From Falsiroseomonas sp. (GTDB lineage: Bacteria > Pseudomonadota > Alphaproteobacteria > Acetobacterales > Acetobacteraceae), in the NCBI RefSeq assembly GCF_041690465.1, contig NZ_JAWLHG010000009.1, positions 61,439 through 125,438 of the forward strand: a stretch of DNA of 64,000 bases, written 5' to 3'. The translations under genes and the position numbers were made by a program. The notes below the pieces were generated by a model. It ran no database searches. It was not told where the DNA came from and worked only from the letters and a program-made list of their open reading frames with translations. Below are positions 14,704 through 29,039 of the stretch, one piece after another; position 1 is the stretch's first letter, and each line of letters begins with the position of its first letter.

Positions 14704-15861
14704 ATGTCGAAGCACGATTTCACGCCGGAGGAATTTGCTGCCCGCCTGCGTCGCGCGCGCGAAGCGGTGGGCGCGGCCGGTCTCGACTGGCTGGTCGTGC
14801 TGCATCCCGTCTCGATCCACTGGCTGACCGGCGGCGAGGCGAAATCCTACCAGGCCTTCCAATGCCTGCTGCTGGCAGCGGAGGAGAAGCCGCTGACACT
14901 GCTCTCGCGCGGCTCCGATATCGGCGAGTGGCGGGACGACGCGCTGGTGGACGAGGCCGTGTCCTGGGGCGGGCCGGAGCCCGAGGATCCGATCGCCGCC
15001 TTCGCCCGGTTGGCGCGGGAGCGCGGGCTGCTTTCGGCGCGCGTCGGCATCGAGGTGCCGGGCTACTACCTGCACCCGCACCACTACGTCCAGTTGAAGG
15101 ACCTGCTTGGCGGCGCGCTGGTTGCGGAGCCGACCAACCTGATCCACGAGCTGAAGGCGGCGAAATCGCCAGCGGAACTCGTGCTGGTGCGCCAGGCTGC
15201 GGCGCATGCGGATGCGGCGCTGCACGCCTGCCGGGCCGTGGCGACCGCGGGCCGCAGCGAACTGGAGGTGGCGGCGGAGGCCTATCGCGCGCTGCTCGCC
15301 AGCGGCTGCGGCCTGCCGGCGAGCACGATGAACCTGGTGAGCGGCGAGCGGCTCTGCTACCCGCATGGCGCGCCGACACAGCGCGTGCTGCAGCCGGGCG
15401 ATGGCGGCAACATCGAACTCGGCGCGGCCTTCCGCCGCTACACCGCGACGCTCGGCCGCAATTTCCAACTCGGCAAGCCGCCGGTGCGGCTGCGCGAGAT
15501 CCATGCCGTGGTGCGGGAGGCCGGCGACGCGATGATGGCCGCGATCCGGCCCGGTGTTCCGGCGGTCGAGCCGCACCTCGCCGCGAAGCGAATCATTGCC
15601 AAGGCGGGCTTCGATGCGGGGCGGCTGCACACCTCCGGCTATGGGCTGGCGCCGGGCTTCCCGCCTTCCTGGGGCGAGCCGCTCAACATGTTCGGCGGCG
15701 CGACCGGCGTGATCGCGGAAGGCATGGTGCTGACGATCGAGCCGCCGATCTTCCTGCATGCGGAGCGACTTGGAGCGCGCCTGATCGACAACGTCGTCGT
15801 CACCGCGAGCGGCGCCGAGATTCTCTCACACGTGCCACGCGAAATCATCGAGGTCGGCTGA
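14704..15861 (+). CDS. M24 (pita-bread) family hydrolase, creatinase/ectoine-hydrolase-like
   Basis: Creatinase_N-like N-domain (EEFAARLRRAREAV...LDWLVV), KSPAELVLVRQAA, YPHG and MVLTIEP. Confidence 0.85.
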   Translation: MSKHDFTPEEFAARLRRAREAVGAAGLDWLVVLHPVSIHWLTGGEAKSYQAFQCLLLAAEEKPLTLLSRGSDIGEWRDDALVDEAVSWGGPEPEDPIAAFARLARERGLLSARVGIEVPGYYLHPHHYVQLKDLLGGALVAEPTNLIHELKAAKSPAELVLVRQAAAHADAALHACRAVATAGRSELEVAAEAYRALLASGCGLPASTMNLVSGERLCYPHGAPTQRVLQPGDGGNIELGAAFRRYTATLGRNFQLGKPPVRLREIHAVVREAGDAMMAAIRPGVPAVEPHLAAKRIIAKAGFDAGRLHTSGYGLAPGFPPSWGEPLNMFGGATGVIAEGMVLTIEPPIFLHAERLGARLIDNVVVTASGAEILSHVPREIIEVG

Positions 15862-16393
15862 CTGGCCGCGTGCGCCGCGGCTCGCCCTCCGGCGCGGCAA
15901 GTGCGGTCTGGCGGCGCGCTTCCGCTTCCAGCTTGCGCAGCGCGGAATCCATCACGCGCCGCTCCTCCTCGGACAGGCAGGCCTGGAAGGCGGCGTCGCG
16001 CTCCCGCGCGGCGGCGATCAGGCCGGCATAGGTGCGGCGACCCTCGGCCGAGAGGCGCAGCGCGACCTCGCGCGCGTCCTCCCGGCCGATCTCGCGCAGC
16101 ACCAGGCCGCGCTGCACCAGATCTGCGACCGCGCGGCTCGCCTGGCTCTTGTCCAGCCCGCTTTCCCTGGCGAGATCCTTGAGCGTCAGCGGCGCGAAAT
16201 CGCCGAGCAGGGCGAGGATGCGCCATTCCATCAGGCTGACGTCGAAGCCCTGGCGGTAGCGCAGCGCAGCACCACGCGAGAGCGCATTTGCCACGCGATG
16301 CATGCGGTAGGAGATCAGGTCCTTGATGGTCTGCGCGCCATCCGGCTCGGCATCCGGATCGGCGGGCGAGGTGCGGCGGCGCGCCGTGGGCAT
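15845..16393 (-). CDS. MarR-family transcriptional regulator
   Basis: EWRILALLGD...LTLKDLARESGLDKSQASRAVADLVQRGLV.R...DAREV.LRLS.EGR winged helix. Confidence 0.92.
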   Translation of the reverse strand: MPTARRRTSPADPDAEPDGAQTIKDLISYRMHRVANALSRGAALRYRQGFDVSLMEWRILALLGDFAPLTLKDLARESGLDKSQASRAVADLVQRGLVLREIGREDAREVALRLSAEGRRTYAGLIAAARERDAAFQACLSEEERRVMDSALRKLEAEARRQTALAAPEGEPRRTRPVSRPR

Positions 16394-16396
16394 GCG

Positions 16397-16975
16397 TCAA
16401 TCCTCGAAGAAGGGTGTCTCGGCCTCGGGCGGGCCGTGCAGCAGCAGGTCGAAGCGGAAGGCGGGGATGTTGTCCTCCATTCCGTCCGGGAGCGCCACGA
16501 GCCTGTGGCGCAGCGCTGGCGGCAGGGCGAGCAGCACCGGGTCCTGTGCGTTTGTCGGCTCGCCGGGGAAGAAGACGGTGGTCAGCAGTCGGCCCATGAT
16601 GCCGGAGCCGATCAGCAGCAGGTTTACATGCGGCGCACGCGTGCCGGCAGGATCGGCATAGGAGCCAGGCCGGATGGAACGGAAGCTGTAGCGCCCCTCC
16701 GCATCCGTCCAGGCGCGGCCCCAGCCGAGGAAGCCTGGATCGGCTTCACCAGCGGCGGCGTCGAGCGGGTGGGCGAAGCGGCCAGCGGCATCGGCCTGCC
16801 ACGCCTCCAGGACGACGTTGACGCAGGGGCGGCCGCCTTCCTCCAGCACGCGGCCGCGCAGCAGGATGCGCTCGCCATGCGCGGCGCCGCGCGCCATATC
16901 GCTGTCGCCTTCGCGAAAGAAGCTTTGCGGGAAGAAAGGGCCGATGGTGTGCCAGGGCGTCGGCGTGCGGGTCAT
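16397..16975 (-). CDS. pcaG: Protocatechuate 3,4-dioxygenase alpha subunit (intradiol)
   Basis: TPTPWHTIGPFF, ILLRGRVLEEGGRP, LEAWQADAAGRF, GWGRAWTD, RAPHVNLLLIGSGI...LLTTVFFPGE and ETPFFED; lies downstream of pcaH. Confidence 0.88.
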   Translation of the reverse strand: MTRTPTPWHTIGPFFPQSFFREGDSDMARGAAHGERILLRGRVLEEGGRPCVNVVLEAWQADAAGRFAHPLDAAAGEADPGFLGWGRAWTDAEGRYSFRSIRPGSYADPAGTRAPHVNLLLIGSGIMGRLLTTVFFPGEPTNAQDPVLLALPPALRHRLVALPDGMEDNIPAFRFDLLLHGPPEAETPFFED

Positions 16976-16986
16976 GGCGGCGCGCC

Positions 16987-17703
16987 TCAGGGCAGGGCGG
17001 GCGTGGCGCGGCGGCCGCGCAGCACCAGGTCGTGCACGAAGCCGAGCCACTCGCCGGGCACCTCGGCCGGCGGAAGCTGGCGCGCCATCAGGCTCTCGCG
17101 CGCCGCCGCGTCGGGCACGGCGTTGAGCAGCCGGTCATGCGCGTTCAACGGATCGCCCGGGAAATACATCTGCGTCACCAGCCGCGAGAGGCAGGAGGGG
17201 CCGAGCACCGACATGTGGATGTGCGGCGGCCGCCACCAGCGCCCGGACTCCGGCACGGGATAGGCGCCGGGCTTGATGGTGAAGAAGGCGTAGCTGCCTT
17301 CCTCGTCGGTGCGCGTGCGGCCATTGCCGATGAAGTCCGGATCGAGCGGCGCGTCCCGCGTGTCGAGCGGGTTCAGGTAGCGGCCGGCGGCGTTGGCCTG
17401 CCAGAGCTCGACGATGGCGCCGCGCACCGGCCGGCCATCCTCGTCCAGCACGCGGCCGGCGACATGGATGAGCTGGCCGATCGCGATGCGACCGGGCGCA
17501 GTGCGAGCGAGGTCGTTGTCGCCGGGGTGCAGCAGCGGGCCGAGGTCGCGCGGCCCGGTCAGCTCGGTGCGCGTGAGCGGGCGGCGGAACGGCGCGCGGT
17601 TCGGGTTGCGGCGCACCGTGTTGGGATAGCCGGCGATGGGCACGGCGGGCTGCACCTCTGCGCGCAGCGGGTCGAAGCAATTGGCGGGCAGATCGTCCGG
17701 CAT
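16987..17703 (-). CDS. pcaH: Protocatechuate 3,4-dioxygenase beta subunit (intradiol)
   Basis: TELTGP, IHVAGRVLDEDGRPV, VELWQANAAGRY (Tyr ligand), TIKPGAYP (Tyr ligand), WRPPHIH (Arg plus two His ligands) and LVTQMYFPGDP. AAGGAG RBS 9 nt before ATG 17703. Confidence 0.92.
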   Translation of the reverse strand: MPDDLPANCFDPLRAEVQPAVPIAGYPNTVRRNPNRAPFRRPLTRTELTGPRDLGPLLHPGDNDLARTAPGRIAIGQLIHVAGRVLDEDGRPVRGAIVELWQANAAGRYLNPLDTRDAPLDPDFIGNGRTRTDEEGSYAFFTIKPGAYPVPESGRWWRPPHIHMSVLGPSCLSRLVTQMYFPGDPLNAHDRLLNAVPDAAARESLMARQLPPAEVPGEWLGFVHDLVLRGRRATPALP

Positions 17704-17717
17704 GCGGTGCATCTCCT

Positions 17718-19493
17718 TCAACACACGACGATCGGCTCGGCGGTGGCCAGCGCGGCGAGGCGCGCGGGATCGGGTGTGAGGCCGAGGCCAGGGCCGGTCG
17801 GCGGCGTCAGACGGCCGTCGGCGATGGCGAAGGCATCCGGCGCGACGATGTCCTCCGCCAGCAGGGGCCAGCCGCAATCCACAGGGTGCGGATCATCGAG
17901 GCGCAGCGCCAGCGCCATCTGCGCATTGGCCGCGGTGCAGAGGCCCGTCTCGTAGAAGCTGTGCAGCGCCGGCGTGAGCCCGAGAAGCCGCGCCACCGCC
18001 ACCATGTCGCGCAGCGCCGCGACGCCGCCCCAGTAGAACAGGTCGCTGAGCACGATGCCGAGGCCCGGCCGCCGCGCCGCCGCGGCGAGATGCTCCGGCG
18101 ACAGGATGCACATGTTGGTGGCGAGCGGCGTCGTGACGTGATGCGCGAGGCGCGCCATGCCCTCGAGCCCGTCGGTCGGGTCTTCGAGGAACTCGAGGCT
18201 TAGCGGCTCGAGGGAGATGCAGAGGCGCCGCGCCTCCTCCACCGGATAGGCGGCGTTCGGATCAAAGCGCAGCCGCGCCGCGGGCCCGAGCGTGGCGCGC
18301 AGTGCGGCGAGCGCGGCGAGGTCCCAGGCGGCATTGCCGGCACTCTTGTACTTGAAGGCGGTGACGCCCCAGCGCGCGGCGATGCCACCGGCGAGATCGG
18401 CCACCCGCGCGGCGTTGCCGGCATCGGCCATGTGCGCGGCGAGTTCCGCCCGGTTCAGCATGCGCCCGGGGACGGCGGCGGGAAGCGGACAGGCAATGGG
18501 GACGGAGCCGCCTTCAACGTGATCGCCGAGTGCGGTGCGCAACGACAGGCCATCGTGCCGCGCCGCGGCGTCCCAGGCGGCGAGGTCGAGGCCGGCGAAG
18601 GCGGCCATACCGTCGCGACCCTGGCGGTTCTCGAAGCCGATGCGCGCGAAGCGGCGGCGCAGGGCGGCGCGGCCGCTGCCGATGTCCTGGCCGATCCAGC
18701 CGCGCGCCATGGTCGCGACCAGCGGCGCGATGGCGCCATGCGTCTCGCCCCAGCCGACGGTGCCACCGGCGGTGCGCAACTCCACCAGCGTGCGCGCCTG
18801 GCGGTCGGTGATGTACATCGAACTGACATAGAGATCGCGCAGCGGCAGGGCGATCCGGTGCAGTCGCACCTCACGCACGGCCAGCGCATCGCTCCCCGTG
18901 GTGATGGTGGGCGACGGGAAGGGAGAGGCGACGGCGGCGCCGATATGCGCGGCGAGGCGCGCGGTGCCGCCGGCCTCGCCGGGATCGGGCCGCAGTGCGA
19001 GCCGCACGTCGAAGGCGCGCGCCAGTGCCGCGAGATCGCGCAACCCTTCCGGCCCGCCGGTCCGCGCATCGGCGACGAGCAGCGTGCGCGCGGGGTCGAG
19101 GCAGGCGGCGACCGGGTCCTGTGTGGCCGGCTCGTCGTTCTCGAGCAGCGGCGGCGGCGCCATCGGCCCGCCGGGCAGCGGCGGCGCGCCGAGCGCGTCC
19201 CGCAAGGCGCCGCGGGCGGCGAGGACGGCGCCGAAGGCGGCACGCTCCACGCCATCCAGCGACAACCAATGCCGCAGCGCGCCTTCCGGCATCTGCGCCA
19301 GCGCTGGCGTATTCACCAGGTCGCGCGCCAGCCGCAATGCTGCCGCTGCCGCATCGGGCGGCAGCGCACAGGCGCCGTTCTCCCCGCTCCCGGCGCGCAG
19401 CACGATGCGATCGTCCAGCAGTTCCGCGGCGGTGATGCGCGGGCCGTGGATGTGGATGGTGGCAGGCATCGCGGGGGGCATGGCCCTTCCCAT
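17718..19493 (-). CDS. Enolase-superfamily (glucarate dehydratase-like) enzyme with an extra degenerate N-terminal module
   Basis: C-terminal ~390 aa has GWGET, FKYKSAG (KxK), RFDPNAA, LEDP, LATNM and ALHS. Start uncertain (ATG at 19493, 19481 or 19469). Confidence 0.8.
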   Translation of the reverse strand: MGRAMPPAMPATIHIHGPRITAAELLDDRIVLRAGSGENGACALPPDAAAAALRLARDLVNTPALAQMPEGALRHWLSLDGVERAAFGAVLAARGALRDALGAPPLPGGPMAPPPLLENDEPATQDPVAACLDPARTLLVADARTGGPEGLRDLAALARAFDVRLALRPDPGEAGGTARLAAHIGAAVASPFPSPTITTGSDALAVREVRLHRIALPLRDLYVSSMYITDRQARTLVELRTAGGTVGWGETHGAIAPLVATMARGWIGQDIGSGRAALRRRFARIGFENRQGRDGMAAFAGLDLAAWDAAARHDGLSLRTALGDHVEGGSVPIACPLPAAVPGRMLNRAELAAHMADAGNAARVADLAGGIAARWGVTAFKYKSAGNAAWDLAALAALRATLGPAARLRFDPNAAYPVEEARRLCISLEPLSLEFLEDPTDGLEGMARLAHHVTTPLATNMCILSPEHLAAAARRPGLGIVLSDLFYWGGVAALRDMVAVARLLGLTPALHSFYETGLCTAANAQMALALRLDDPHPVDCGWPLLAEDIVAPDAFAIADGRLTPPTGPGLGLTPDPARLAALATAEPIVVC

Positions 19494-19515: not shown

Positions 19516-19530
19516 GTTTACTTCCTCAAC
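19516..19530. promoter_or_regulatory. Candidate operator GTTTA-CTTCC-TCAAC (1 mismatch to GTTGA-N5-TCAAC)
   Basis: In the AT-rich 64-bp divergent intergenic region between the dehydratase-like and lyase genes. Confidence 0.55.
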
Positions 19531-19557: not shown

Positions 19558-20487
19558 ATGTCCAACGGTCCCGAGGTTAATCTGTGCGAGTGCCTGGCCC
19601 GCGACGGGCTGCAGCATGAGGCGAAGGTGATTCCCGTCGAAGCAAAAGCCGCGATGCTGGAACGCATCGCCGATTGCGGCTTCCGCCGCATCGAGATCAC
19701 CTCCTTCGCGCACCCGAAATACGTGCCGCAATTCGCCGATGCCGATGCCGTGCTGGCGGCGGTTCGGCCGCGGCCGGGCGTGCTGTTCAAGGCGACCTGT
19801 CCGAACCCGCAGGCGGTGACCCGGGCGCTGGCCGCGCATGCGCGCGGGCGCGGGCCGGAGGAGCTGAGCTTCCTGGTCTCCGCCTCGGAAGGCCACACGC
19901 GGAAGAACCTGAGGCGCTCGCGGGAGGAGCAATGGGCGAATGTGGCGGAGATGGCGCGCCTTGCCGGCGATGCCTTCACGCTGGTCGGTACCATCTCGGT
20001 GGCCTTCGACTGTCCGTTCGATGGACCCGTTCCGCCGGACAGCGTGATCGCCGATGCGCAGCGCTTCGCCTCGCTCGGCGTCAGGCGCATCGCGATCGGC
20101 GATACCATCGGCAGCGGCACGCCGCCGCGCGTCAAGGAGCTGGTACGCCTGCTGCGGGAGGCTTTGCCGGACGCGCTGTTCATCGCGCATTTCCACGACA
20201 GCCGCGGCACCGGCATCGCCAATTGCGTTGCCGCGCTGGAGGCGGGGCTGCGCCATTTCGACACGGCGCTCGGCGGCACCGGCGGCCATCCCGCAGGCAT
20301 CGCCTATGGCGAGGGCTTCACCGGCAATGTCTGCACCGAGGATCTCGCGACGCTGTTCGCCGCGATGGGCGTCGAGATGGGCCTCGACCTCGACCGCGTG
20401 CGGGAAGCCGGCCGCGCGGCCGAGGCGCTGCTCGGCCGCCAGCTCTATGCGCGCACGGTGCGCATGGGCGAGAAGGCCACCGGCTGA
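19558..20487 (+). CDS. HMG-CoA lyase / citramalyl-CoA lyase-like (DRE-TIM) enzyme
   Basis: ECLARDGLQHE, IEITSFAHPKYVPQFADA, SASEGHTRKNL, GTISVAFDCPF, IGDTIG, AHFHDSRGTG and GNVCTEDL. Confidence 0.92.
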   Translation: MSNGPEVNLCECLARDGLQHEAKVIPVEAKAAMLERIADCGFRRIEITSFAHPKYVPQFADADAVLAAVRPRPGVLFKATCPNPQAVTRALAAHARGRGPEELSFLVSASEGHTRKNLRRSREEQWANVAEMARLAGDAFTLVGTISVAFDCPFDGPVPPDSVIADAQRFASLGVRRIAIGDTIGSGTPPRVKELVRLLREALPDALFIAHFHDSRGTGIANCVAALEAGLRHFDTALGGTGGHPAGIAYGEGFTGNVCTEDLATLFAAMGVEMGLDLDRVREAGRAAEALLGRQLYARTVRMGEKATG

Positions 20488-20498: not shown

Positions 20499-21494
20499 TC
20501 AGTTCGCCGTGATGCCGGCCCGCTGCACGACCTCTCGCCACATCGGCACTTCCTCGCGCAGCCGTGCCGCAAGGGGAGCGGGGCCGTCCAGCAGGAGGCG
20601 CCCACCGGAATCCCGCAGCCGCTGCGCCAGCACCGAACCCTGCGCGAGCGGCGCGACCTCGCGCGCGAGCAGGTCCACCACCTCCTGCGGCGTGCCGCGA
20701 GGGGCGAGGATGGCGTACCAGATGACCATGCTGTAGCCGGGCACGGCTTCGGCGATGGCGGGCACATCTGGGACAACCGGGCTGCGTTGCGGCGAGGTCA
20801 CGCCGATGCCGAGCAACCGTCCCTCGCGGATATGGGTGACGCCTTCGATCAGCCCGGTCACCATGAGGTCGGTGTCGCCCGCATAGAGCGCGTTGACGGC
20901 CTGCGCGACGCCGCGATAGGGCACGTGCATAAGGTCGATGCCCGCGCGCACCTTCAGCAACTCGCCCGCCAGGTGCGTGGTGGCACCGACACCGGAGGAG
21001 CCGTAGGTGATCTTGCCCGGCTCCGCCTTCGCGTGGGTCAGCAGGTCCTGCAGGCTCTTCACCCGACCATCCAGTCTGGCGAGAATCGCGAGCGGCACTT
21101 CCGAAACCAGCGTCACCGGGACCAGATCATTTAGGGGGTCGTAGCCGGGATTGCTGCGAAGCGCCGGGACGATCGCAACGGAGCCGGTCGTGAAGACGAA
21201 GCTGTGCTCATCGCGCGCCGCGAGCACCGCCTGGATGCCGAGCGCACCGCCCGCGCCAGGCCGCGCCTCCACGATCACCGGCTTGCCGAAGCGCTGGCTG
21301 AGGTGGTCCGCGATGAAGCGCGCCGGCACTTCGACAGGGCCGCCAGGCGCGAAGGGCACCACGAACCGGACGTTGCGGCTCGGCCAGCTGGCGCTGGTGG
21401 CGACCTGCGCCCGCGCCAATGCAGGCAGGGCGAGCGCCGGCAGGGCGGCGAGAAGCGTGCGTCGATCCGGGCGGATTTGGCGATCGCGGGGCAT
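20499..21494 (-). CDS. Bug/TctC tripartite tricarboxylate transporter substrate-binding protein
   Basis: WPSRNVRFVVPFAPGG, VIVEARPGAGG, ITYGSSGVG...HLAGE and HVPYRG; AGGAG RBS before ATG 21494. Confidence 0.93.
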   Translation of the reverse strand: MPRDRQIRPDRRTLLAALPALALPALARAQVATSASWPSRNVRFVVPFAPGGPVEVPARFIADHLSQRFGKPVIVEARPGAGGALGIQAVLAARDEHSFVFTTGSVAIVPALRSNPGYDPLNDLVPVTLVSEVPLAILARLDGRVKSLQDLLTHAKAEPGKITYGSSGVGATTHLAGELLKVRAGIDLMHVPYRGVAQAVNALYAGDTDLMVTGLIEGVTHIREGRLLGIGVTSPQRSPVVPDVPAIAEAVPGYSMVIWYAILAPRGTPQEVVDLLAREVAPLAQGSVLAQRLRDSGGRLLLDGPAPLAARLREEVPMWREVVQRAGITAN

Positions 21495-21622: not shown

Positions 21623-22585
21623 ATGGTCGAGCGCCTGGGTTTCCCGAGCCGCCTGCCGGCGCTGCTCGGCATCCGCCTGCCGATCGTGCAGGGCGGCATG
21701 TCCTGGGCGTCCTCCTCGGCCGCGCTGCCACTGGCAGTGGCGCGTGCCGGCGCGCTCGGCACCATCGCGGCCGGGCCGATGCGGCCGGAGGCGCTGGTGG
21801 CCGCGATCCGGGAGCTGCGCGCCGGCACGGATGCGCCCTTCGCGGTGAACGTGCCGCTCTACAACAAGCGCTCGGCGGAGTTCCTCGACATCGTCGAGGC
21901 GGAGCGCGTGCCGATCATCATCGCGTCGCAGGGCGGTCCGAAGGCGCTGCCGCGCTTCCGCGCGATCGGGACGAAGTGGGTTCACGTCGTTGCCTCGCCG
22001 CTGCACGCCGCGAAGGCGGCGGAAGCGGGGGTGGACGCGGTGATCGCGGTGGGCGGGGAGGCTGGCGGCCATCCGGCGCCGGACGAGGTCTCCGCGATGG
22101 TGCTGGTGCGCGCGGTGGTGCGCGCGGTGACCATCCCCGTGATCGGCGCAGGGGGCGTCGCGGATGGCGCCGGCATCGCCGCGATGTTCGCGCTGGGTGC
22201 GGAGGGCGCGCAGCTCGGCACGCGCTTCCTGATGACGGAGGAGGCGACGGTGCACCCCGACTACAAGGCGCGCGTGCTGGCGGCGGGGATCAGCGACACG
22301 CGGCTGGTCGGGCGCGGGCGCCTGCCGATCCGCCAGCTCCGCAACCGGTTCACGGACGAGGTGGATGCCGCCGAGCGCGCCGGGCGGCCCGCGGAGGAAC
22401 TGGCTGCACTGCAGGCGAGCCGCTCGTTGCGCGAGGCGGCGCTGGAGGGCGATGTGGAGTTCGGCAAGGTGGAAGCCGGCCAGACCGCGGGCCTGATCGA
22501 CGACATCCCGCCCGCCGGCGAGCTGGTGCGGCGGCTGGCCGCGGAAGCCGAGGCGGTGCGGCTGCGCTTGGCGGGTGCGGCATGA
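21623..22585 (+). CDS. Nitronate monooxygenase / FabK-like FMN-dependent oxidoreductase
   Basis: LLGIRLPIVQGGM, PFAVN, AEAGVDAVIAVGGEAGGH, PVIGAGGVADG and GAEGAQLGTRF. Confidence 0.9.
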   Translation: MVERLGFPSRLPALLGIRLPIVQGGMSWASSSAALPLAVARAGALGTIAAGPMRPEALVAAIRELRAGTDAPFAVNVPLYNKRSAEFLDIVEAERVPIIIASQGGPKALPRFRAIGTKWVHVVASPLHAAKAAEAGVDAVIAVGGEAGGHPAPDEVSAMVLVRAVVRAVTIPVIGAGGVADGAGIAAMFALGAEGAQLGTRFLMTEEATVHPDYKARVLAAGISDTRLVGRGRLPIRQLRNRFTDEVDAAERAGRPAEELAALQASRSLREAALEGDVEFGKVEAGQTAGLIDDIPPAGELVRRLAAEAEAVRLRLAGAA

Positions 22586-23781
22586 AGCCGCTGGCGGGGA
22601 TCACCATCCTCGACCTCTCGCGCGTACTGGCCTGCCCCTTCGCCTCCATGGTGCTGGCGGAACTCGGCGCTGAGGTCATCAAGGTGGAGCAGCCCGGCAG
22701 CGGCGACGAGACGCGAGGCTTCGAGCCCTTCGCCGAAGGTCCGCAGGGCGAGCGCGTCAGCGGCTACTACATGGCCTGCAACCGATCCAAGCGCTCCATC
22801 ACCGTGAACATGCGCCATGCCGAAGGGCGCGCGATCATCCGCGGCCTGGCGGCGCAGGCGGATGTGCTGGTGGAGAACTTCCCGCCCGGCACGCTGAAGC
22901 GGCGCGAGCTGGACTGGCCTTCGCTGCGCGAGGTCAATCCGCGGCTGGTCTTTCTCTCCTGCACCGGCTTCGGGCAGAGCGGGCCATACGCCAAGCGCAA
23001 GGGCTACGACACGGTGTTCCAGGCGATGGGCGGGCTGATGTCGCTGACGGGCGAACGCGGCGGCGGGCCGGTGAAGCCGGGGCTGCCGGTGGCGGACCTG
23101 ACCTCCGGCCTGTGGGTGGCGATCGCGATCCTGTCGGCGCTGCGCGGGCGGGATGCAACGGGGCAGGGCGGCTTCGTGGATTTCTCGATGCTGGACGGGC
23201 AGGTCGCGCTGCTGACCATCGCCGCCGCACGGCTCTTCGCGCTTGGCGAGGTGCCGCCGCGGCTCGGTACCGAGCATCCCGGCCGCGTGCCGACCGCAAG
23301 CTTCCGCTGTGCCGATGGGCGCTTCCTGCACATCACCTGCAGCGACCAGCACTGGCTGCCGCTGTGCAAGGCATTGGGGCTGGAGGCGCTGGCGGCGGAT
23401 GCGGGCCTCGCCACCAACGCCGGCCGGCTGGCGCGGCGCGCGGAGGTGATGCAGGCGTTGGATGCGGCGATGGCCCGGCTGACGCGGGCGGAGGCGGTGG
23501 CGGCGCTGGATGCCGTCGACGTGCCGAACGGCCCGGTGCTGGCGCTGGACGAGGTGGTGGCCGACCCGCATGTGCAGGCGCGCGGCATGGTGCATCGCTT
23601 CGCGCATCCGGCGCTCGGGGAGTTCCCGGCGCTGCGCGTGCCGTTCCGCTTCGAGGGGTGGGACGATCCGGCGGTGGCGCGCCCGCCGCTGCTGGGCGAA
23701 CACACCGAGGAGGTGCTGGCGCAGCGCCTCGGCTACGATGCGGTGCGCATTGCGGCGCTGCGGGAGGAAGGCGCGATATGA
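22582..23781 (+). CDS. Family III (CaiB/BaiF) CoA-transferase
   Basis: PLAGITILDLSRVLACPF, ELGAEVIKVE, NRSKRSIT, ADVLVENFPPG, GFGQSGPY, PVADLTSG (catalytic Asp) and PPLLGEHT. Confidence 0.95.
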   Translation: MKPLAGITILDLSRVLACPFASMVLAELGAEVIKVEQPGSGDETRGFEPFAEGPQGERVSGYYMACNRSKRSITVNMRHAEGRAIIRGLAAQADVLVENFPPGTLKRRELDWPSLREVNPRLVFLSCTGFGQSGPYAKRKGYDTVFQAMGGLMSLTGERGGGPVKPGLPVADLTSGLWVAIAILSALRGRDATGQGGFVDFSMLDGQVALLTIAAARLFALGEVPPRLGTEHPGRVPTASFRCADGRFLHITCSDQHWLPLCKALGLEALAADAGLATNAGRLARRAEVMQALDAAMARLTRAEAVAALDAVDVPNGPVLALDEVVADPHVQARGMVHRFAHPALGEFPALRVPFRFEGWDDPAVARPPLLGEHTEEVLAQRLGYDAVRIAALREEGAI

Positions 23782-24521
23782 GCGATGATCCGATCCTGTT
23801 CGAGCTCTCCGCAGAGGGCGTGGCCACGGTCCGGCTGAACCGCCCGGCCGCGCGCAACGCCCTGAACACGGCGCTCGCCCTGGGGCTGCTGGAATCGGCG
23901 CAGCGCGCGGTGGCGGAGGGCGCGAAGCTGGTGCTGCTGCGCGCAGCCGGCACGGTGTTCTGCGCCGGCGCCGACCTCAAGGAACGCCAGGGCATGAGCG
24001 ACGACCAGGTGCGCGCCCGCCGCGTGAAGGCCTTTGCCGCCTACAACGCGATCGAGCGCCTGCCGATGCCGGCGATCGCCGTGGTGGAGGGGCCGGCGAT
24101 CGGGTCAGGCTGCGAGATCGCCGCCGCCTGCGACTTCGTCGTCGCCACGCCGGCTGCCAGCTTCCGCACGCCGGAGGCGCTGTGGGGCACGGTCGGCGCC
24201 ACGCAGCGCCTGCCGCGCGTCCTCGGCAAGCGGCTGGCGAAGGACATGATGTTCACCGGCCGCACGCTCTCCGCCGAGGAGGCGCGCGAAGCCGGGCTGG
24301 TGACGCGCGTGGTGGCGCCGGAGTCGCTGGAGACCACGCTCGCCGACATGGCCGCGACGATCGTGAAGGCGCCGGCTTCGGCGCTCGCCCTGGCGAAGCG
24401 CTGCGTTGACGAAGGCGTGGAGCGCGACCCGCGCGGCGCGCTGGCAACCGAACTGATGGCCATCGAGGAGAGCCTGGCCGCCGCCGAATGGCGCCGCACC
24501 ATGGCGGGCTTCGGGCGGTGA
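23778..24521 (+). CDS. Enoyl-CoA hydratase/isomerase (crotonase) family protein
   Basis: LNRPAARNAL, FCAGADLKE, GSGCEIAAACD and FRTPE (both catalytic Glu), GATQRLPRVLG. Confidence 0.93.
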   Translation: MSDDPILFELSAEGVATVRLNRPAARNALNTALALGLLESAQRAVAEGAKLVLLRAAGTVFCAGADLKERQGMSDDQVRARRVKAFAAYNAIERLPMPAIAVVEGPAIGSGCEIAAACDFVVATPAASFRTPEALWGTVGATQRLPRVLGKRLAKDMMFTGRTLSAEEAREAGLVTRVVAPESLETTLADMAATIVKAPASALALAKRCVDEGVERDPRGALATELMAIEESLAAAEWRRTMAGFGR

Positions 24522-26128
24522 GCGACTGGGTTCGGCGCCGGCTCTCGGACTTCCTGGACGCAAACGCCGCCGGGCGCGGCGCGGCCGAGGCGCTGGTCAC
24601 CGAGAAGGAACGCCTCAGCCACGCCGCGCTGCGGGAGGAGGCGCGGGCCGTCGCGCGTTCGCTGCTGGCGCTGGGCATCAGGCGTGGCGAGCATGTCGGC
24701 GTGCTGACCGGCAACGACGCCGACTGGGTGCGCATCTTCTATGGCGCGGCGCTGATCGGCGCGGTGACGGTGCCGGTGAACACGCGCTTCAAGGCGCCGG
24801 AGATCGCCTTCGCGCTACGCCAGGCGGATTGCCGCGCGGTGTTCGTGCGTGGCCGCTTCCTGAGGATCGACTTCGCCGCGGCGCTGGCCGAGGCGGAGCC
24901 CGCCGTCGCCACCGGGCTGCCGGGCGAGGCCCTGCCGCTGCTGCGCCAGGCCGTCGTCATGGGCGAGGAGGTGCCGGCCGGTGCGCTCCCATGGTCCGAC
25001 TTCCGCGCGCGCCAGGCGAGCGAAGCGGCACTGGAGGAGGCCATCGCCGCAGTCACGCCGGACGACCCTCTGCTGGTGCAGTTCACCTCCGGCACCACCG
25101 CCTATCCGAAGGGCGTGCTGCTGACGCATACCAACATGCTGCGCAACGCCTGGGCCGTGTCGCAGCGGCTCGGCGTGCGGCCCGATGACCGCTACCTGAA
25201 CTGCCGGCCGTTCTTCCATGTCGCCGGCTCGACGCTCTCGCTGCTGGTCTGCCTCGTCACCGGCGCGACGATGGTGACGCCCCCGACCTTCGAGGCGGGC
25301 GCCGCCCTGCGACTGCTGGAGCAGGAGCGCTGCACGCTGACCAGCGGCAATGACAGCATATTCCAGATGCTGATGGCGCATCCCGAGTACCGGCGCGAGC
25401 GCCTGCATCTGCGCGGCGGCTGGGCGGCAGCCGGTCCCATCACGATGCGCCGCGTGATCGAGGAGATGGGGGCGAAGGAGCTCTGCTGGGCCTATGGTCT
25501 TTCCGAAGCTTCGCCGAATGTGGTGCTGAGCGACCATCGCGACCCGGCGGAGCTGCGCATCTCCGGCCGCGCCGCCCCGCACCCCGGCGTGGAGGTGCGC
25601 ATCGCCGATCCCGCTACGGGCCGCATCCTGCCGCCCGAGGCGCGCGGCGAGATCCAGGTGCGCGGCTGGGGCATCATGCGCGGCTACTACAACAACGCGG
25701 ATGCGACGGCGAAGACCTTCACGCCGGATGGCTGGCTGCGCACCGGCGACCTGGGCGCGCTGGATGCAGAAGGCCGGCTTCGCATGGAAGGTCGGCTGAA
25801 GGACGTGCTGCGCGTTGGCGGCGAGAATGTCGCGCCGGCGGAGGTGGAGGAGGTGCTGCTCGCCCATCCCGCCATCGCCATGGCGCAGGTGGTCGGCGTG
25901 CCGGATGCGCGGCTTGGCGAGGTGCCGGCGGCCTTTGTCACGCTGCGCGCCGGTGCGGCCCTGACGGACGCCGAGTTGCTGGATTGGCTGCGCCCCAGGC
26001 TGGCGAATTTCCGCATGCCCCGGCACCTGCGGATCGTGCCGGATTTCGAGGCGATCGGCATGACCGCCAGCGGCAAGGTGCAGAAGACGAAGCTGCGCGA
26101 GCACGCGGTGGCGCTGTTCGCACGCTGA
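24518..26128 (+). CDS. AMP-forming acyl-CoA synthetase (adenylate-forming superfamily)
   Basis: QFTSGTTAYPKGVLLTH, RPFFHVAG, AYGLSEASP, GWLRTGDLG, GRLKDVLRVGGENVAPAEVE and TASGKVQK; GTGA overlap. Confidence 0.93.
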   Translation: MSDWVRRRLSDFLDANAAGRGAAEALVTEKERLSHAALREEARAVARSLLALGIRRGEHVGVLTGNDADWVRIFYGAALIGAVTVPVNTRFKAPEIAFALRQADCRAVFVRGRFLRIDFAAALAEAEPAVATGLPGEALPLLRQAVVMGEEVPAGALPWSDFRARQASEAALEEAIAAVTPDDPLLVQFTSGTTAYPKGVLLTHTNMLRNAWAVSQRLGVRPDDRYLNCRPFFHVAGSTLSLLVCLVTGATMVTPPTFEAGAALRLLEQERCTLTSGNDSIFQMLMAHPEYRRERLHLRGGWAAAGPITMRRVIEEMGAKELCWAYGLSEASPNVVLSDHRDPAELRISGRAAPHPGVEVRIADPATGRILPPEARGEIQVRGWGIMRGYYNNADATAKTFTPDGWLRTGDLGALDAEGRLRMEGRLKDVLRVGGENVAPAEVEEVLLAHPAIAMAQVVGVPDARLGEVPAAFVTLRAGAALTDAELLDWLRPRLANFRMPRHLRIVPDFEAIGMTASGKVQKTKLREHAVALFAR

Positions 26129-26134
26129 TCCGCG

Positions 26135-27004
26135 TCAGCGCGCCAGCAGCTTCTTCAGGATTGCGATGGCCTCGTAGGGCGTGTTCGCGGTGTGCGCGCC
26201 GGCTTCGCGCAGTGCGGCGAGCTTCGCTGCCGCACTCTCGCGCTCGCTGCCGATCAGCGCGCCGGCATGGCCCATCTGGCGGTCGGCCGGGGCGTGGCGT
26301 CCGACCAGCGTCGCCACCACGGGATGCGGGAAGCGCGCCAGCGCCTCGGCCAGCGCGTATTCCTTGTCGCCGCCGATCTCGCCGCAATAGAGCACGGCGC
26401 GGGTACGCGGATCATCGGCCAGCGCAGCCAGATACTCGTCCGGGTTGCGCCCGATCACTGCGTCGCCGCCGACATGGATGGCGATGCGCTGGCCGATGCC
26501 GGCCGCCGTCAGCAGCCGCGCGACGGTGAGCGTCAGCGTGCCGCTGCGGCCGATCAGCGCCACCTCGCCCGGGCTGCAGAAGGCCGGGGCGACGGAGCCG
26601 AGGAGACCTTCTTCCGGCACGCAGAGGCCGAGCGTGTTCGGCCCCACCAGCCAGCTTCCGGCCGCCCGCGCTTCCTCCGCCGCGCGCAGCGAGTCGTGCA
26701 GCGGCACGTATTCCGCCGCGGCGACGATGGTCGGGATGCCTGCGGCCGCGCATTGCCGGATGGCATCCGCCGTGCCCTCGGGCGGCGTGTAGAGCACGGC
26801 GGCGTCGGGCTGTTCCGGCAGCTGCGCCAAGCTGTCGAACAGCGGCAGGCCATCGAGGCTGCCGCCGCCACGGCCGAGCGCGATGCCGCCCAGCAGCTGC
26901 GTGCCGGCCTCCTTCATCGCCGTGACCTGCCGTGCGGCGTAGCCGCCGGTCGGGTTGAACACCACGACGCGTTGCGGGAAGCGCTCGAGGAAGGGGAGGG
27001 TCAT
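26135..27004 (-). CDS. Succinyl-CoA synthetase alpha-subunit-like CoA-binding protein
   Basis: CoA-binding Rossmann fold, LVGPNTLG, ALIGRSGTLT, IHVGGD, CGEIGG and QMGHAGA (phospho-His motif). Confidence 0.88.
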   Translation of the reverse strand: MTLPFLERFPQRVVVFNPTGGYAARQVTAMKEAGTQLLGGIALGRGGGSLDGLPLFDSLAQLPEQPDAAVLYTPPEGTADAIRQCAAAGIPTIVAAAEYVPLHDSLRAAEEARAAGSWLVGPNTLGLCVPEEGLLGSVAPAFCSPGEVALIGRSGTLTLTVARLLTAAGIGQRIAIHVGGDAVIGRNPDEYLAALADDPRTRAVLYCGEIGGDKEYALAEALARFPHPVVATLVGRHAPADRQMGHAGALIGSERESAAAKLAALREAGAHTANTPYEAIAILKKLLAR

Positions 27005-28137
27005 GCCACGTCCTCGGCCATCCGGCGCACCAGGGCCAGCGGGTCTTCCTCCAGCGCGGCGATTCCGGCGGCGCGCAGGCGCTGCGTCGCCGACGCCACG
27101 TCGAAGCCGCGCGTCGCGGAAGGCGCGGCGGCGAAGCCGACGAAGAGCGGCTTCGGCGCCGGCTGCTTCGCGAGGAAGGCCAGCAGGCCGTCGATGCGGT
27201 CGCTCAGTGGGCGGGAGGCGAGCGTGGTGTAGAAGAGGATGGCCTTCACCTCCGGTCTTGCCGCGATCTCGAAAGCGGCGGTGAGGCGCGCCTCGGTCGT
27301 GTCCATCGGGCCGCCATGCAGGTTGTCCATGAAGCAGGCGGCGCGCAGGCCGTGGTCGGCGATCAGGTCCATCAGGAACATGCCGAGGCCCGCGCCGGCC
27401 GAGACCAGCGCGACATCGCCGGGCATCTCCACCAGCGCGAAGCCGGCATTGCGCGCGCGGCGTTCGAGCGGCGTCAGGGCCGTGTCCTCCAGCGCCGCGC
27501 TCATCGCTGTGGCGTCCGCATCGTGGCGGCCGGCGGCGACGGCATCGCGCACCAGCTTGGCGTCGCAGGCGACAAGGCCCGCCCGCGTGACCGCGAGCGG
27601 ATTGATCTCCAGCAGCGCGAGGTCCTCGTCCCGCGCGATGCGGGCCAGCCGGGCGGCCAGCCGCGCCACGCGCGCCGCGAGTTGCGCCGGCAGGCGCTCG
27701 CGGATCGCCGGGAACACCTGCTCCGCGGCATCGGGGGCTTCGGCGTGCAGCGCGACGCGGCGGAGGTCGCCGGCGGTCTCGATCTCGACACCGCCTTCGG
27801 CGGCGAACAGCAATTCCTGCGTCTGCCGCGTGCCGTCCACCCGAAGCGCGAGGTACAGCTCCTGCTCGATCGGCACGGCCTGCTCGACCAGCACGGCGAC
27901 GGGACCGGCGATGGCGGCGATCGCCTCGCGCGCGGCGGCGAGTTCGGCGGGTGTCGTCCGGCGCACCAGGCAGCGCTTGCCGCGCCCGCCTTCGAGGACC
28001 TGGGCCTTGACCACCAGATCAGGCAGGGCGCCGAGCCATGGCGGCGCATCCTCCCCCGGCGCGAGAGCCACGCCGCGCGGCAGGGCGATGCCGTGGCGCC
28101 GCAGCAGGGCCTTGCCGTCGGCTTCCGTCAGCCGCAT
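27001..28137 (-). CDS. Succinyl-CoA synthetase beta-subunit-like ATP-grasp protein
   Basis: MRLTEADGKALLRRHGI, VVKAQVLEGGRGK, LVEQAVPIEQELYL, LLEINPL, ACDAKL and GAGLGMFLMD. Confidence 0.88.
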   Translation of the reverse strand: MRLTEADGKALLRRHGIALPRGVALAPGEDAPPWLGALPDLVVKAQVLEGGRGKRCLVRRTTPAELAAAREAIAAIAGPVAVLVEQAVPIEQELYLALRVDGTRQTQELLFAAEGGVEIETAGDLRRVALHAEAPDAAEQVFPAIRERLPAQLAARVARLAARLARIARDEDLALLEINPLAVTRAGLVACDAKLVRDAVAAGRHDADATAMSAALEDTALTPLERRARNAGFALVEMPGDVALVSAGAGLGMFLMDLIADHGLRAACFMDNLHGGPMDTTEARLTAAFEIAARPEVKAILFYTTLASRPLSDRIDGLLAFLAKQPAPKPLFVGFAAAPSATRGFDVASATQRLRAAGIAALEEDPLALVRRMAEDVA

Positions 28138-28166
28138 CCGCCTTCCTCCGCGTGACGTCGCAATTG

Positions 28167-28181
28167 GTTGATACGATCAAC
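28167..28181. promoter_or_regulatory. Candidate operator GTTGA-TACGA-TCAAC
   Basis: Same palindrome as at 21517 and 21555, 30 bp upstream of the SCS-beta-like start codon. Confidence 0.7.
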
Positions 28182-28220
28182 GATGGGGTGGTGCAATCGG
28201 GCGCGCGCTGCGCCCGTGTC

Positions 28221-29039
28221 TCAGCCGCCGCGCCTGGCCAGGAAATCCAGCAAGGTCCGCGTGCAGGTCTCCGGCGCCGCGTCGCCGATGTTGTGCGGCA
28301 TGCCCTCCAGCGAGACCAGCTGCGCATCGGGAATCAGCGCCTGCATGCGCTCGTACTGGTCGTTGGAGCCGATGGGCTCGTGCCCCGGCGCGACGATCAG
28401 CGTCGGGCACGCGATGCGCGGCAGCTCGTCCTCCCAGTCGCGGCTGCTCATGTGGGCGACGAAGCGGCCGACGAAGGGCAGGTCGTTGCTGCCGGTCTGG
28501 CGGCAGAACCAGTCCACCAAGCCAGGATCGGCATCGGGCGGGAAGCGTTCGGCGATGCCGGCGCGCATGAAGGCCTCGAGCCCCATCGCCGCGGCCTTGG
28601 CCGGCCAGGTGCCGGCTTGGCTGTTCTTGAGCCCCGGCGTGGAAGCGAACAGCGCCAGAGTGGCGACGCGGCCGGGATGTGCCATCGCCAGACGCTGCCC
28701 GACATAGCCGCCCGCCGAGAGCCCGACGACATGCGCGCGCGCGACGCCAAGGTGGTCCAGCAGCTCCACCACATCGGTGACCAGCCGTTCCACGGTCAGC
28801 GGCTGCGCTTCCGTCGGGATCTGCGAGGCGCCATGGCCGCGCAGCTCCAGGCTCAGCGTGGTCCAGTGGCGCGCCAGCTCCGGGATCCAGCCGAACCAGC
28901 GGCGATAGGCGCCCATGGCGGCATGCAGCAGCAGCACCGGCGTTTCCGGCGTGCGCCAGGGCGGCGTGAAGTCGTCCACGCGCCAGGCGAGCCGGATGCC
29001 GTCACTGGCCGTCAGGAAAGACATGTTCGGCTGCAGCAT
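28221..29039 (-). CDS. Alpha/beta-fold hydrolase (enol-lactonase-like)
   Basis: LLLHAAMG, LELRGHGAS, VVGLSAGG nucleophile elbow, CPTLIV and GMPHNI. Start at 29039 or 29024. Confidence 0.88.
   Translation of the reverse strand: MLQPNMSFLTASDGIRLAWRVDDFTPPWRTPETPVLLLHAAMGAYRRWFGWIPELARHWTTLSLELRGHGASQIPTEAQPLTVERLVTDVVELLDHLGVARAHVVGLSAGGYVGQRLAMAHPGRVATLALFASTPGLKNSQAGTWPAKAAAMGLEAFMRAGIAERFPPDADPGLVDWFCRQTGSNDLPFVGRFVAHMSSRDWEDELPRIACPTLIVAPGHEPIGSNDQYERMQALIPDAQLVSLEGMPHNIGDAAPETCTRTLLDFLARRGG

Follow-up and report, generated by a model that had tools for sequence, protein, structure and literature searches.

Gene content of the locus

The 64,000-nucleotide stretch of Falsiroseomonas sp. 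DNA analysed here (contig NZ_JAWLHG010000009.1, positions 61,439 to 125,438, GC ~72%; hereafter the window) carries a cluster in which adjoining genes for the beta and alpha subunits of a Dioxygenase_C-fold enzyme, related to protocatechuate 3,4-dioxygenase (PcaHG), lie among genes for coenzyme A (CoA)-dependent enzymes. An actinomycete origin, to which the GC content had pointed, was rejected in view of the many TctC/Bug genes and of relatives that are Acetobacteraceae. Genes were called by third-codon-position GC and assigned to families with Pfam and NCBIfam, and the gene set given in an earlier reading of this DNA (the original prediction) is present as described. Two modules make up the cluster: module A, a two-subunit intradiol dioxygenase and a fused two-domain enolase-superfamily protein (Eno), and module B, an AMP-forming ligase, a CoA-transferase resembling the human succinate-hydroxymethylglutarate CoA-transferase (SUGCT), a FabK-like reductase, an enoyl-CoA hydratase and a variant of 3-hydroxy-3-methylglutaryl-CoA (HMG-CoA) lyase (HMGL), to which an SCS-like ligase has been added in this lineage. 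The genes are:

15845-16393, minus strand: marR, a MarR-family regulator and the final gene of the Eno-pcaH-pcaG-marR operon (Pfam MarR_2/MarR)
16397-16975, minus strand: pcaG-like, alpha subunit of the PcaHG-like intradiol dioxygenase, clade A (192 aa, ATG at 16975)
16987-17712, minus strand: pcaH-like, beta (catalytic) subunit, clade A (ATG at 17712, GAAGGAG before the start)
17718-19493, minus strand: Eno, a 591-aa enolase-superfamily protein of the mandelate racemase/glucarate dehydratase type (Pfam MR_MLE_N/C)
19558-20487, plus strand: HMGL-like retro-Claisen lyase (NCBIfam NF004283)
20499-21494, minus strand: TctC/Bug periplasmic carboxylate-binding protein, divergent from the NMO operon (Pfam TctC)
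21623-22585, plus strand: NMO, a FabK-like enoyl-thioester reductase dependent on flavin mononucleotide (FMN) (Pfam NMO)
22582-23781, plus strand: family III CoA-transferase, SUGCT-like (Pfam CoA_transf_3)
23778-24521, plus strand: ECH1, a crotonase-fold enoyl-CoA hydratase (Pfam ECH_1)
24488-26128, plus strand: AMP-forming acyl-CoA ligase (Pfam AMP-binding)
26135-27004, minus strand: SCS-alpha-like subunit of an ADP-forming ligase (Pfam and NCBIfam)
27001-28137, minus strand: SCS-beta-like subunit of the same ligase (Pfam and NCBIfam)
28221-29105, minus strand: alpha/beta hydrolase, a distant relative of PcaD (111 bits against TIGR02427, cut-off 256)

The four minus-strand genes from Eno to marR have junctions that overlap or are at most 5 nt apart, and Eno is translationally coupled to the pcaH-like gene. 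The HMGL-like gene is divergent from Eno, and the SCS-like pair, with the alpha/beta hydrolase gene upstream of it, is convergent with the run of NMO, CoA-transferase, ECH1 and ligase genes. Pfam scans of all called genes found neither a fumarase-fold lyase (PcaB), nor a family I CoA-transferase (PcaIJ), nor a thiolase in the 64 kb, in agreement with the original prediction. For comparison, we fetched 332 loci (4.7 Mb) through Eno, PcaH and the CoA-transferase, which are cited below by locus number.

A paralogous clade of PcaHG-like dioxygenases

We aligned 78 PcaH/PcaG pairs, 23 from the clade that includes the window enzyme (clade A) and 55 canonical, using Pseudomonas putida numbering transferred through the 2PCD alignment (chain M for the beta subunit). 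The iron ligands Tyr408, Tyr447, His460 and His462, described as intact from the outset, are so in the window beta subunit by this alignment, as are Arg457 and Gln477; all six are kept in 78/78 pairs, as are Tyr324 and Trp400. The two groups differ elsewhere in the pocket: beta-449 is Val in 23/23 clade A pairs and Trp in 55/55 canonical ones, while alpha-133, invariably Arg in the 55 canonical pairs, is Ser in 20 and Ala in 3 of the 23 clade A pairs (Ser in the window). Pairs from other Acetobacteraceae are among the canonical ones that keep Trp449 and Arg133. Clade-specific differences are also seen in the loop after Tyr447 and in the residue before Arg457, or flanking it. Clade A is monophyletic in 200/200 bootstraps. 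The beta subunit, ~50% identical to Pseudomonas PcaH, scores 234 bits against TIGR02422, below the equivalog cut-off of 296.4, and the alpha subunit 136.5 bits against TIGR02423, above the cut-off of 126.25. An open reading frame (ORF) with the PcaB signature occurs in 52 of 76 canonical loci versus none of the clade A loci checked.

From structural work on the P. putida and Acinetobacter enzymes, we take Trp449 to line the pocket of the substrate ring and Arg133 to place a positive charge close to the substrate carboxylate, which in the P. putida enzyme is presumably also contacted by Tyr324; an Arg133His mutant was reportedly isolated as a loss-of-function allele in work on these organisms. 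With canonical PcaB as the query, we located loci of the form pcaH(Trp449)-pcaG(Arg133)-pcaB in genomes that also bear clade A, namely the metagenome-assembled genome (MAG) SKYG43 (L273, with clade A at L002) and Falsiroseomonas frigidaquae JCM 15073 (L316, with clade A at L184). A canonical pcaB away from the cluster was also located in four more genomes that have clade A pcaHG or module B, and two of these four loci also show canonical pcaH or pcaHG. A separate canonical pca cluster, which the original prediction had proposed to look for, is thus found in relatives carrying clade A, and its presence indicates that the cluster is not a replacement for the beta-ketoadipate route and sits beside it.

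Judged by these alignments, the window dioxygenase is a PcaHG paralogue with a remodelled substrate pocket, descended from protocatechuate 3,4-dioxygenase. Its naming as protocatechuate dioxygenase holds for fold and iron ligands and fails at beta-Val449 and alpha-Ser133; on the equivalog scores the two subunits are divided. The replaced pocket residues, together with the canonical locus in sister genomes, suggest that protocatechuate is probably not the substrate of clade A. If it were, the cluster would be a second, CoA-dependent protocatechuate route that runs the logic of homocitrate synthase in reverse: 3-carboxymuconate would be activated, reduced to homoaconityl-CoA, hydrated to homocitryl-CoA and split to acetyl-CoA and 2-oxoglutarate, central metabolites for which no further enzymes are needed. 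Such a route would be in keeping with an alpha subunit that passes the PcaG cut-off and a beta subunit that is about half identical to PcaH, with the retention of Tyr324 and all the catalytic residues, with TctC proteins and an OpdH/OprE-like porin that suit tricarboxylates, and with an HMGL fold that also covers homocitrate and citramalate synthases. We nonetheless consider it unlikely, as every clade member has lost the two residues that are invariant in the 55 canonical enzymes, the beta subunit falls below the equivalog threshold, and a second enzyme for one substrate is unexpected where sister genomes retain the full canonical pcaHG-pcaB locus. The type II 4-sulfocatechol dioxygenase was also considered and rejected: its partners, PcaB2 and a lactone hydrolase, are absent, and its distinguishing changes are said to lie near alpha-105 rather than at 133 or 449.

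An enolase-superfamily partner of the dioxygenase

Eno is found next to pcaHG in at least 25 loci. Across 35 homologues, its KxK motif (K377, K379) and D407, E433, N456, D480 and H507 are invariant, giving the catalytic set of the mandelate racemase/glucarate dehydratase subgroup: KxK on strand 2, Asp/Glu/Asn metal ligands and an Asp480-His507 dyad on strands 6 and 7. A score of only 47 bits against the glucarate dehydratase model TIGR03247 (cut-off 829) rules out a true glucarate dehydratase, and 55 bits against the muconate/chloromuconate cycloisomerase model TIGR02534 (cut-off 335), with Asp480 and not Lys at the strand-6 position, rules out membership of the muconate cycloisomerase family. 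The best structural matches are 4DYE, 2OQH and 3VC5, enolases without an assigned function, at 29-36% identity over the aligned core. The N-terminus (~residues 11-200) forms a degenerate, reduced enolase-like domain (AlphaFold2 pLDDT 92.9 overall and >90 in this domain). Hence, 'glucarate-dehydratase-like', as the gene had been called, is apt for the subgroup residues, but leaves out an additional folded N-terminal domain of ~200 aa and a score far beneath that family's cut-off.

In two distant loci, L110 (8885-9979) and L111 (1660-2640), the degenerate enolase-like ORF is a separate gene directly upstream, which suggests that Eno arose by fusion of the genes of a heteromeric enolase-superfamily enzyme, reminiscent of GudD/GudX. 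The subfamily is small, with ~67 homologues at ≥47% identity, mostly in Acetobacteraceae (Caldovatus, Muricoccus and Falsiroseomonas); beyond it there is a gap down to the 'glucarate dehydratase family' proteins of actinomycetes at ~33% identity. Paralogues of Eno (57-68% identity) also occur without a dioxygenase, as in Caldovatus sediminis (L003), Falsiroseomonas stagni (L004/L005), L089 and L090, where the neighbours include a GST, a second MR/MLE protein, a different family III CoA-transferase, a MaoC hydratase, a class II aldolase-like protein and a thiamine pyrophosphate (TPP) enzyme. Conversely, clade A pcaHG in L008 and L009 (~7780-11220) is without Eno and adjoins a GST and three TctC genes; that this GST might stand in for Eno as a cis-trans isomerase is speculation.

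Enzymes of the CoA module

The lyase reaches 263 bits against NF004283 (cut-off 246), has the HMG-CoA lyases 1YDN and 2CW6 as its best structural matches, and keeps the TIM barrel with the RDG (ARDGLQ) and HxH (HFHD) metal-binding motifs. We take the active-site signature of HMG-CoA lyases to be S-V-x-G-L-G-G-C-P, as in PROSITE, with Cys266 as the catalytic residue of the human enzyme. The window protein has ALGGTGGHP at this place, and most of 60 full-length module B orthologues (e.g., L229 14247-15203) have GG[TV]GGHP for GLGGCP, that is, a replacement of the catalytic Cys by His with a two-residue insert, while a lyase paralogue outside the module in L016 has SVAGLGGCP. By these signatures, the His-variant enzymes are a distinct, uncharacterised HMG-CoA-lyase-like subfamily.

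The remaining enzymes likewise resemble characterised families. The CoA-transferase matches CoA_transf_3 over its full length (401 bits), with 4ED9 and human SUGCT (9BR7) as its best structures, and reaches no equivalog cut-off, the best being SucGlutTfsCaiB (342 bits versus 750). The NMO protein scores 263 bits against the FabK model TIGR03151, below its cut-off of 453, though the nearest structures are still FabK (4IQL and 5GVH). ECH1 has both catalytic glutamates (GSGCEIA and TPEALWG, equivalent to rat Glu144 and Glu164); ECH2 and ECH3, crotonases of related loci that are not in the window, have the second glutamate only. The AMP-forming ligase is ambiguous between aromatic and fatty-acid types: the NCBIfam models closest to it describe fatty-acid and FadD3-type ligases, with every score under the cut-off, and the top structural matches are a feruloyl-CoA synthetase (8WEV) and FadD13. 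The SCS-alpha-like subunit carries the phospho-histidine motif GHAGA, and the SCS-like pair recurs beside the module B lyase or clade A pcaHG in L001, L172, L174, L177, L183, L184, L190 and the P0064 locus. Orthologues of TctC in related clusters are 52-79% identical.

Module B is an autonomous operon that has repeatedly been joined to module A

Among the fetched loci, the dioxygenase and the CoA genes occur together in at least 30, from two proteobacterial classes (Acetobacteraceae and Burkholderiales MAGs) and in varied gene orders. In the Burkholderiales type, they form one co-directional operon, Eno-pcaH-pcaG-MarR-NMO-ECH-CoA-transferase-ECH-ligase-TctC-HMGL. This operon is closed by a gene for a YgiD-type 4,5-DOPA extradiol dioxygenase (373 bits versus a cut-off of 233; L006 13324-14112, L167 10973-11749) and thus encodes both intradiol and extradiol catechol dioxygenases. 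Among the cultured carriers are F. frigidaquae JCM 15073, F. selenitidurans BU-1, Muricoccus vinaceus and Pseudoroseomonas coralli and, with the CoA module alone, strains of the Pseudomonas fluorescens group. Synteny thus answers in the affirmative the question of whether the cluster is conserved as a unit, and comparison of the loci indicates that this unit consists of two modules joined repeatedly in evolution.

The CoA module also has a life of its own. Orthologues of the CoA-transferase (60-84% identity) are found in Alpha-, Beta- and Gammaproteobacteria, and in Pandoraea, Cupriavidus, Achromobacter, Bordetella, Paraburkholderia, Pigmentiphaga, Advenella and the P. fluorescens group (60-81%), the MarR, NMO, ECH2, CoA-transferase, ECH1, ligase and HMGL genes are intact without a dioxygenase or Eno within 10 kb. 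The description of a dioxygenase embedded in a CoA-dependent cluster thus needs qualifying: the two gene sets do form a co-regulated, conserved unit, but the CoA genes also occur without any dioxygenase. The standalone module is flanked by an MFS or TctC importer (e.g., L229 6726-16675 of P. fluorescens PS918, L216, L185 and L191) and, in the loci checked closely, also by a porin, of the OccK type in Pseudomonas and a general porin in Pandoraea. From its gene content and distribution, module B is an autonomous and widespread operon, of which we found no description in the literature searched. The importer and porin point to an external acid as its native substrate, and in its standalone form the module would degrade this imported acid. 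An abscisic-acid side-chain pathway was entertained for it, as an idea only, and set aside; the chemistry would fit, but the literature searched contained no gene cluster for comparison.

Enzymes that would form catechols cluster beside module A and not beside module B, and they differ from genome to genome: L110 has HpaB, L172 and the P0064 locus have single-component Rieske oxygenases, Muricoccus vinaceus has a flavin hydroxylase along with a two-component ring-hydroxylating dioxygenase and its dihydrodiol dehydrogenase, and the Burkholderiales loci have a class II-aldolase-type protein and a MetE-like protein. The variety of these catechol-forming enzymes points to a central ring-opening step fed by several peripheral routes, and module B is placed downstream of it on this ground. 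Acetobacteraceae often have a TPP-dependent 2-oxoacid-decarboxylase-like gene (PRK08266 family, 672 bits) and a TctC gene just downstream of pcaG or MarR (L169-L172, L001, L171), to which L172 adds an FMN-dependent 2-hydroxyacid dehydrogenase; no PRK08266-type gene is present in the window.

The reverse order, which the original prediction had offered as its alternative, would have the CoA module act before ring cleavage: an aromatic acid with a side chain would be imported and activated, acetyl-CoA removed, and the resulting catechol opened by the PcaHG-like enzyme. Regulators of the MarR family often respond to aromatic acids or to the CoA esters of these, which would favour this order, as would feruloyl-CoA synthetase as the best solved structure for the ligase, the module's own importer with TctC staying inside the joined clusters, and the ease with which organisms with module B alone could feed the product into ordinary pathways. 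We nevertheless think it improbable. An aldehyde dehydrogenase, a 3-hydroxyacyl-CoA dehydrogenase and a thiolase are all missing from the conserved set; the enoyl-thioester reductase and the SUGCT-like dicarboxylate transferase have no obvious role in shortening a side chain; the nearest NCBIfam families of the ligase are aliphatic (fatty-acid and FadD3); and the hydroxylases and oxygenases beside module A would be redundant.

A shared operator and predicted regulon

A palindromic motif, GTTGA-N5-TCAAC, has five matches at ≤1 mismatch in the window against 0.45 expected, a number reached in 0/100 shuffles. Four of the five lie in promoter regions, one between Eno and HMGL, two between TctC and NMO, and one upstream of SCS-beta:

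19516-19530: operator-like site GTTTACTTCCTCAAC, one mismatch, in the 64-bp divergent spacer between Eno and HMGL
21517-21531: perfect palindrome GTTGACATCATCAAC, in the divergent promoter region between TctC and NMO
21555-21569: perfect palindrome GTTGATATTGTCAAC, in the same divergent promoter region
28167-28181: perfect palindrome GTTGATACGATCAAC, 30 bp upstream of the SCS-beta start

The arrangement upstream of SCS-beta is the same in Pseudoroseomonas coralli (L177). Over the fetched loci, 49 perfect copies occur in 45 loci, every one with the CoA module; 48 of the 49 lie ≤250 bp upstream of the start of a core gene and none lies inside a gene. The core genes that they precede are NMO, Eno, pcaH, HMGL and SCS-beta. 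In genomes that have module B by itself the copy is in front of NMO, and in the Burkholderiales operons it is in front of Eno or pcaH. As almost every locus with the CoA module also has a MarR orthologue (34-76% identity), whether or not a dioxygenase is present, the cluster MarR is the likely binder predicted for this operator. A search of solved structures gave no effector hint for MarR, and no public sequencing runs covering the locus, which might have given expression evidence, are listed. The presence of the operator upstream of both gene sets places the dioxygenase, Eno and the SCS-like ligase in one predicted regulon with the CoA genes.

The alpha/beta hydrolase stands apart from this regulon. 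Its gene lies upstream of the SCS operator, the motif was not found in its own promoter region, and none of the related loci has an orthologue beside the cluster. The original prediction had counted it into the cluster as an enol-lactonase-like hydrolase; the adjacency is peculiar to the window, and the protein is probably not part of the unit. We have dropped it as a candidate pathway lactonase, because relatives do not conserve it and no operator-controlled unit includes it.

Shared control might also link two modules that are biochemically parallel, acting on two halves of a natural conjugate or on compounds that occur together, with the product of Eno passing to canonical beta-ketoadipate enzymes encoded elsewhere. 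Each module does stand alone in some genomes, canonical pca genes are present elsewhere in sister genomes, and Eno has paralogues without any dioxygenase. We give this explanation a low probability, since the joining of the modules took place independently in two bacterial classes and gave differing gene orders, pcaH or Eno can lie directly behind the module B operator, the gene junctions are translationally coupled in single operons, and no PcaC or PcaD partner is conserved beside module A.

Other genes in the window

The M24/creatinase-like gene (14704-15861, plus strand) and marR (minus strand) are convergent, with 3' ends that overlap by 17 nt (15845-15861). A separate operon at 33988-39406 (minus strand) encodes TctC, a CMD-family protein, a polysaccharide deacetylase, an alpha/beta hydrolase, an ApbA/ketopantoate-reductase-like protein and a second TctC, and adjoins a GntR regulator gene. 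Its CMD-family gene (34997-35608; PcaC-type fold, a weak match at 28 bits) and alpha/beta hydrolase gene (36451-37272, the second in the window) belong to PcaC/PcaD-type families, yet the operator motif was not found nearby. Part of a type VI secretion cluster lies at 106-5376 (C-terminal part of TssC/VipB, ImpE, gp25-like TssE, TssF and TssG). By Pfam, other catabolic content is found at 9115-13629, 40947-45378 and 45400-63999, namely a flavin reductase, an NMT1-type ABC system, a luciferase-like monooxygenase, a hydantoinase/oxoprolinase A and B pair, and three sets of Dpp/Opp-type ABC transporters accompanied by a DAO-family oxidase and a cupin protein. An extra ORF at 48881-49897 has a Walker A motif typical of ABC ATPases.

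A proposed route from ring cleavage to acetyl-CoA

The cluster probably encodes an undescribed bacterial route for the breakdown of a plant-type aromatic compound. In our overall reading, to which we assign a probability of about 0.45, a para-substituted catechol would undergo intradiol cleavage, Eno would act on the product, and the CoA module would then yield acetyl-CoA and a 4-oxo acid. We are slightly more tentative about the fuller proposition that this is an undescribed CoA-dependent lower pathway of ortho cleavage, assembled from a neofunctionalised PcaHG paralogue, a new enolase-superfamily (cyclo)isomerase and a retro-Claisen module. We infer the order of the modules, the substrate and each chemical step as follows.

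A 4-R-catechol, with an R that is unable to leave as CO2, would be opened between the two hydroxyl groups, giving a 3-R-cis,cis-muconate. The carboxylate of protocatechuate is an unlikely R, and homoprotocatechuate, dihydrocaffeate or caffeate, and 4-alkylcatechols are the candidate substrates. Eno, which occupies the position of CatB or PcaB beside the dioxygenase, would lactonise the muconate or isomerise it from cis to trans, and its two-faced acid-base set would suit an isomerisation via the lactone. The ligase would prime the pathway with a CoA thioester and the transferase would recycle the CoA; the FabK-like enzyme would reduce the distal C4=C5 bond of the dienoyl thioester, and the single-glutamate crotonase, where present, might serve in a double-bond or ring-opening isomerisation. 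ECH1 would then hydrate at C3 to give a 3-hydroxy-3-R-acyl-CoA, a tertiary alcohol, which the HMGL-type lyase would split to acetyl-CoA and R-CO-CH2CH2-COOH. With R = CH2COOH (homoprotocatechuate), this acid would be 3-oxoadipate, so that the end of leucine degradation would be copied and the co-resident canonical pathway could finish the job; with R = COOH it would be 2-oxoglutarate, via a homocitryl-CoA-like intermediate, and with R = CH3 levulinate.

Addition of water or of a carboxylate at C3 of a 3-R-muconate creates a quaternary carbon, with which the classical pathway copes only if R leaves as CO2. The proposed route would bypass the dead-end 4-substituted muconolactone of that pathway. 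One such lactone, 4-methylmuconolactone, is a documented dead end for it (PMC6449761, citing Marin et al. 2010). The suggestion in the original prediction that the ring-cleavage product is hydrated, CoA-activated and split by a retro-Claisen lyase accords with the enzyme set, though in view of the pocket changes carboxymuconate from protocatechuate is probably not the input. For this combination of genes, for intradiol cleavage of homoprotocatechuate and for a muconolactone together with an HMG-CoA lyase, the literature searched yielded nothing relevant.

Several observations weigh against the proposed route. Tyr324 is kept in clade A, and the substrate may be a carboxylated one, even protocatechuate; the roles given above to Trp449 and Arg133 are those that we presume from structural papers. 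Eno has the His-Asp dyad and KxK of dehydratases and racemases without the strand-6 Lys of known muconate cycloisomerases, and a lactonising role is ascribed to it purely by analogy. The importer and porin of the standalone module B indicate an external acid as native substrate, which need not be a product of ring cleavage, and the TctC gene retained inside the joined clusters would also fit module B acting first. Finally, some clade A loci are without module B within 10 kb (L088/L171, L110 and L111).

Relationship to known systems and implications

With the protocatechuate branch of the beta-ketoadipate pathway (PcaHG, PcaB, PcaC, PcaD, PcaIJ and PcaF), the cluster shares an intradiol dioxygenase of two subunits, with non-haem Fe(III) and the same iron ligands, and the gene of a presumed muconate-acting enzyme adjoining it. 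In contrast to that branch, beta-Trp449 and alpha-Arg133 are replaced, PcaB, PcaIJ and PcaF are not in the window, the partner enzyme is of the enolase superfamily rather than the fumarase fold, and a reductase, a hydratase and a retro-Claisen lyase are found where the branch has a decarboxylase, a lactonase and a thiolase. The modified ortho pathway for 4-methylcatechol (mml of Cupriavidus and Pseudomonas reinekei; Rhodococcus rhodochrous N75) faces the same problem of a 4-substituted muconolactone. In the 3-methylmuconolactone route of strain N75, the muconolactone is reportedly activated as its CoA ester. According to PMC6449761, methylmuconolactone isomerases and a lactone hydrolase act in the mml route together with a family I CoA-transferase and a thiolase. 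The cluster has no member of these families, and its C-C cleavage would be of the HMG-CoA-lyase type.

The closest chemical parallel to the CoA module is with the end of leucine degradation (3-methylglutaconyl-CoA hydratase and HMG-CoA lyase) and SUGCT: in these, too, a crotonase turns a 3-substituted 2-enoyl-CoA into a tertiary 3-hydroxyacyl-CoA that an HMGL-fold lyase splits to acetyl-CoA and a ketone, and the nearest solved structures of the cluster enzymes are HMG-CoA lyases and human SUGCT. The cluster differs in having GGxGGHP for GLGGCP in its lyase, in lacking a carboxylase and an acyl-CoA dehydrogenase in the module, and in adding a FabK-like reductase, predicted control by a MarR-family regulator and the link to ring cleavage. 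The carnitine (cai) operon has a similar logic, in which an AMP-forming ligase primes, a family III CoA-transferase cycles CoA, a crotonase adds or removes water and an enoyl-CoA reductase works on the thioester; however, it is not orthologous (112 bits against the L-carnitine CoA-transferase model, cut-off 413), its reductase is acyl-CoA-dehydrogenase-like and not FabK-like, and the cluster ends with a C-C lyase. In the 4,5-cleavage of protocatechuate, the ring-cleavage product is likewise hydrated to a tertiary alcohol (by the hydratase LigJ) and then cleaved (in a retro-aldol reaction by the aldolase LigK), but there unrelated families act on free acids after extradiol cleavage, whereas the cluster is intradiol and would work at the level of CoA thioesters. 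As for Eno, 4DYE and 2OQH (Streptomyces coelicolor) and 3VC5 (Thermobispora) share its fold, KxK, Asp/Glu/Asn ligands and His-Asp dyad, yet their low identity over the core sets them apart and the link to an intradiol dioxygenase is specific to the Eno subfamily; GudD/GudX offers the precedent for a degenerate enolase-like partner, which is a separate ORF in L110/L111 and fused in the window.

The cluster therefore shares parts and logic with each of these systems and is a member of none. It falls outside the known families by the pocket, beta score and context of its PcaHG, the Cys signature of its lyase, the glucarate dehydratase and cycloisomerase scores and strand-6 residue of Eno, and the FabK score of its reductase. 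On the proposed reading, it would be an ortho-cleavage pathway with a new lower half, with three or more enzyme subfamilies that are as yet uncharacterised and a predicted pairing of regulator and operator.

Textbook aerobic lower pathways after ring opening are few, namely the beta-ketoadipate, meta, gentisate and homogentisate routes. If true, this reading would add another to the set and show how bacteria handle ortho-cleavage products with a substituent that is unable to leave. It would assign functions to a new PcaHG-type clade, a new subfamily of the enolase superfamily and the HMG-CoA lyase variant with His for Cys. A MarR-associated operon widespread among soil, plant-associated and opportunistic Proteobacteria, with an annotation that now consists of family names only, would also gain a function. 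With predicted products of acetyl-CoA and 3-oxoadipate, 2-oxoglutarate or levulinate, it would also be relevant to the valorisation of lignin and aromatics, and the predicted operator and the cultured carriers make it directly testable. More broadly, Pseudomonas, Achromobacter, Bordetella and Cupriavidus would have in module B a new pathway for 3-substituted unsaturated acids that they import.

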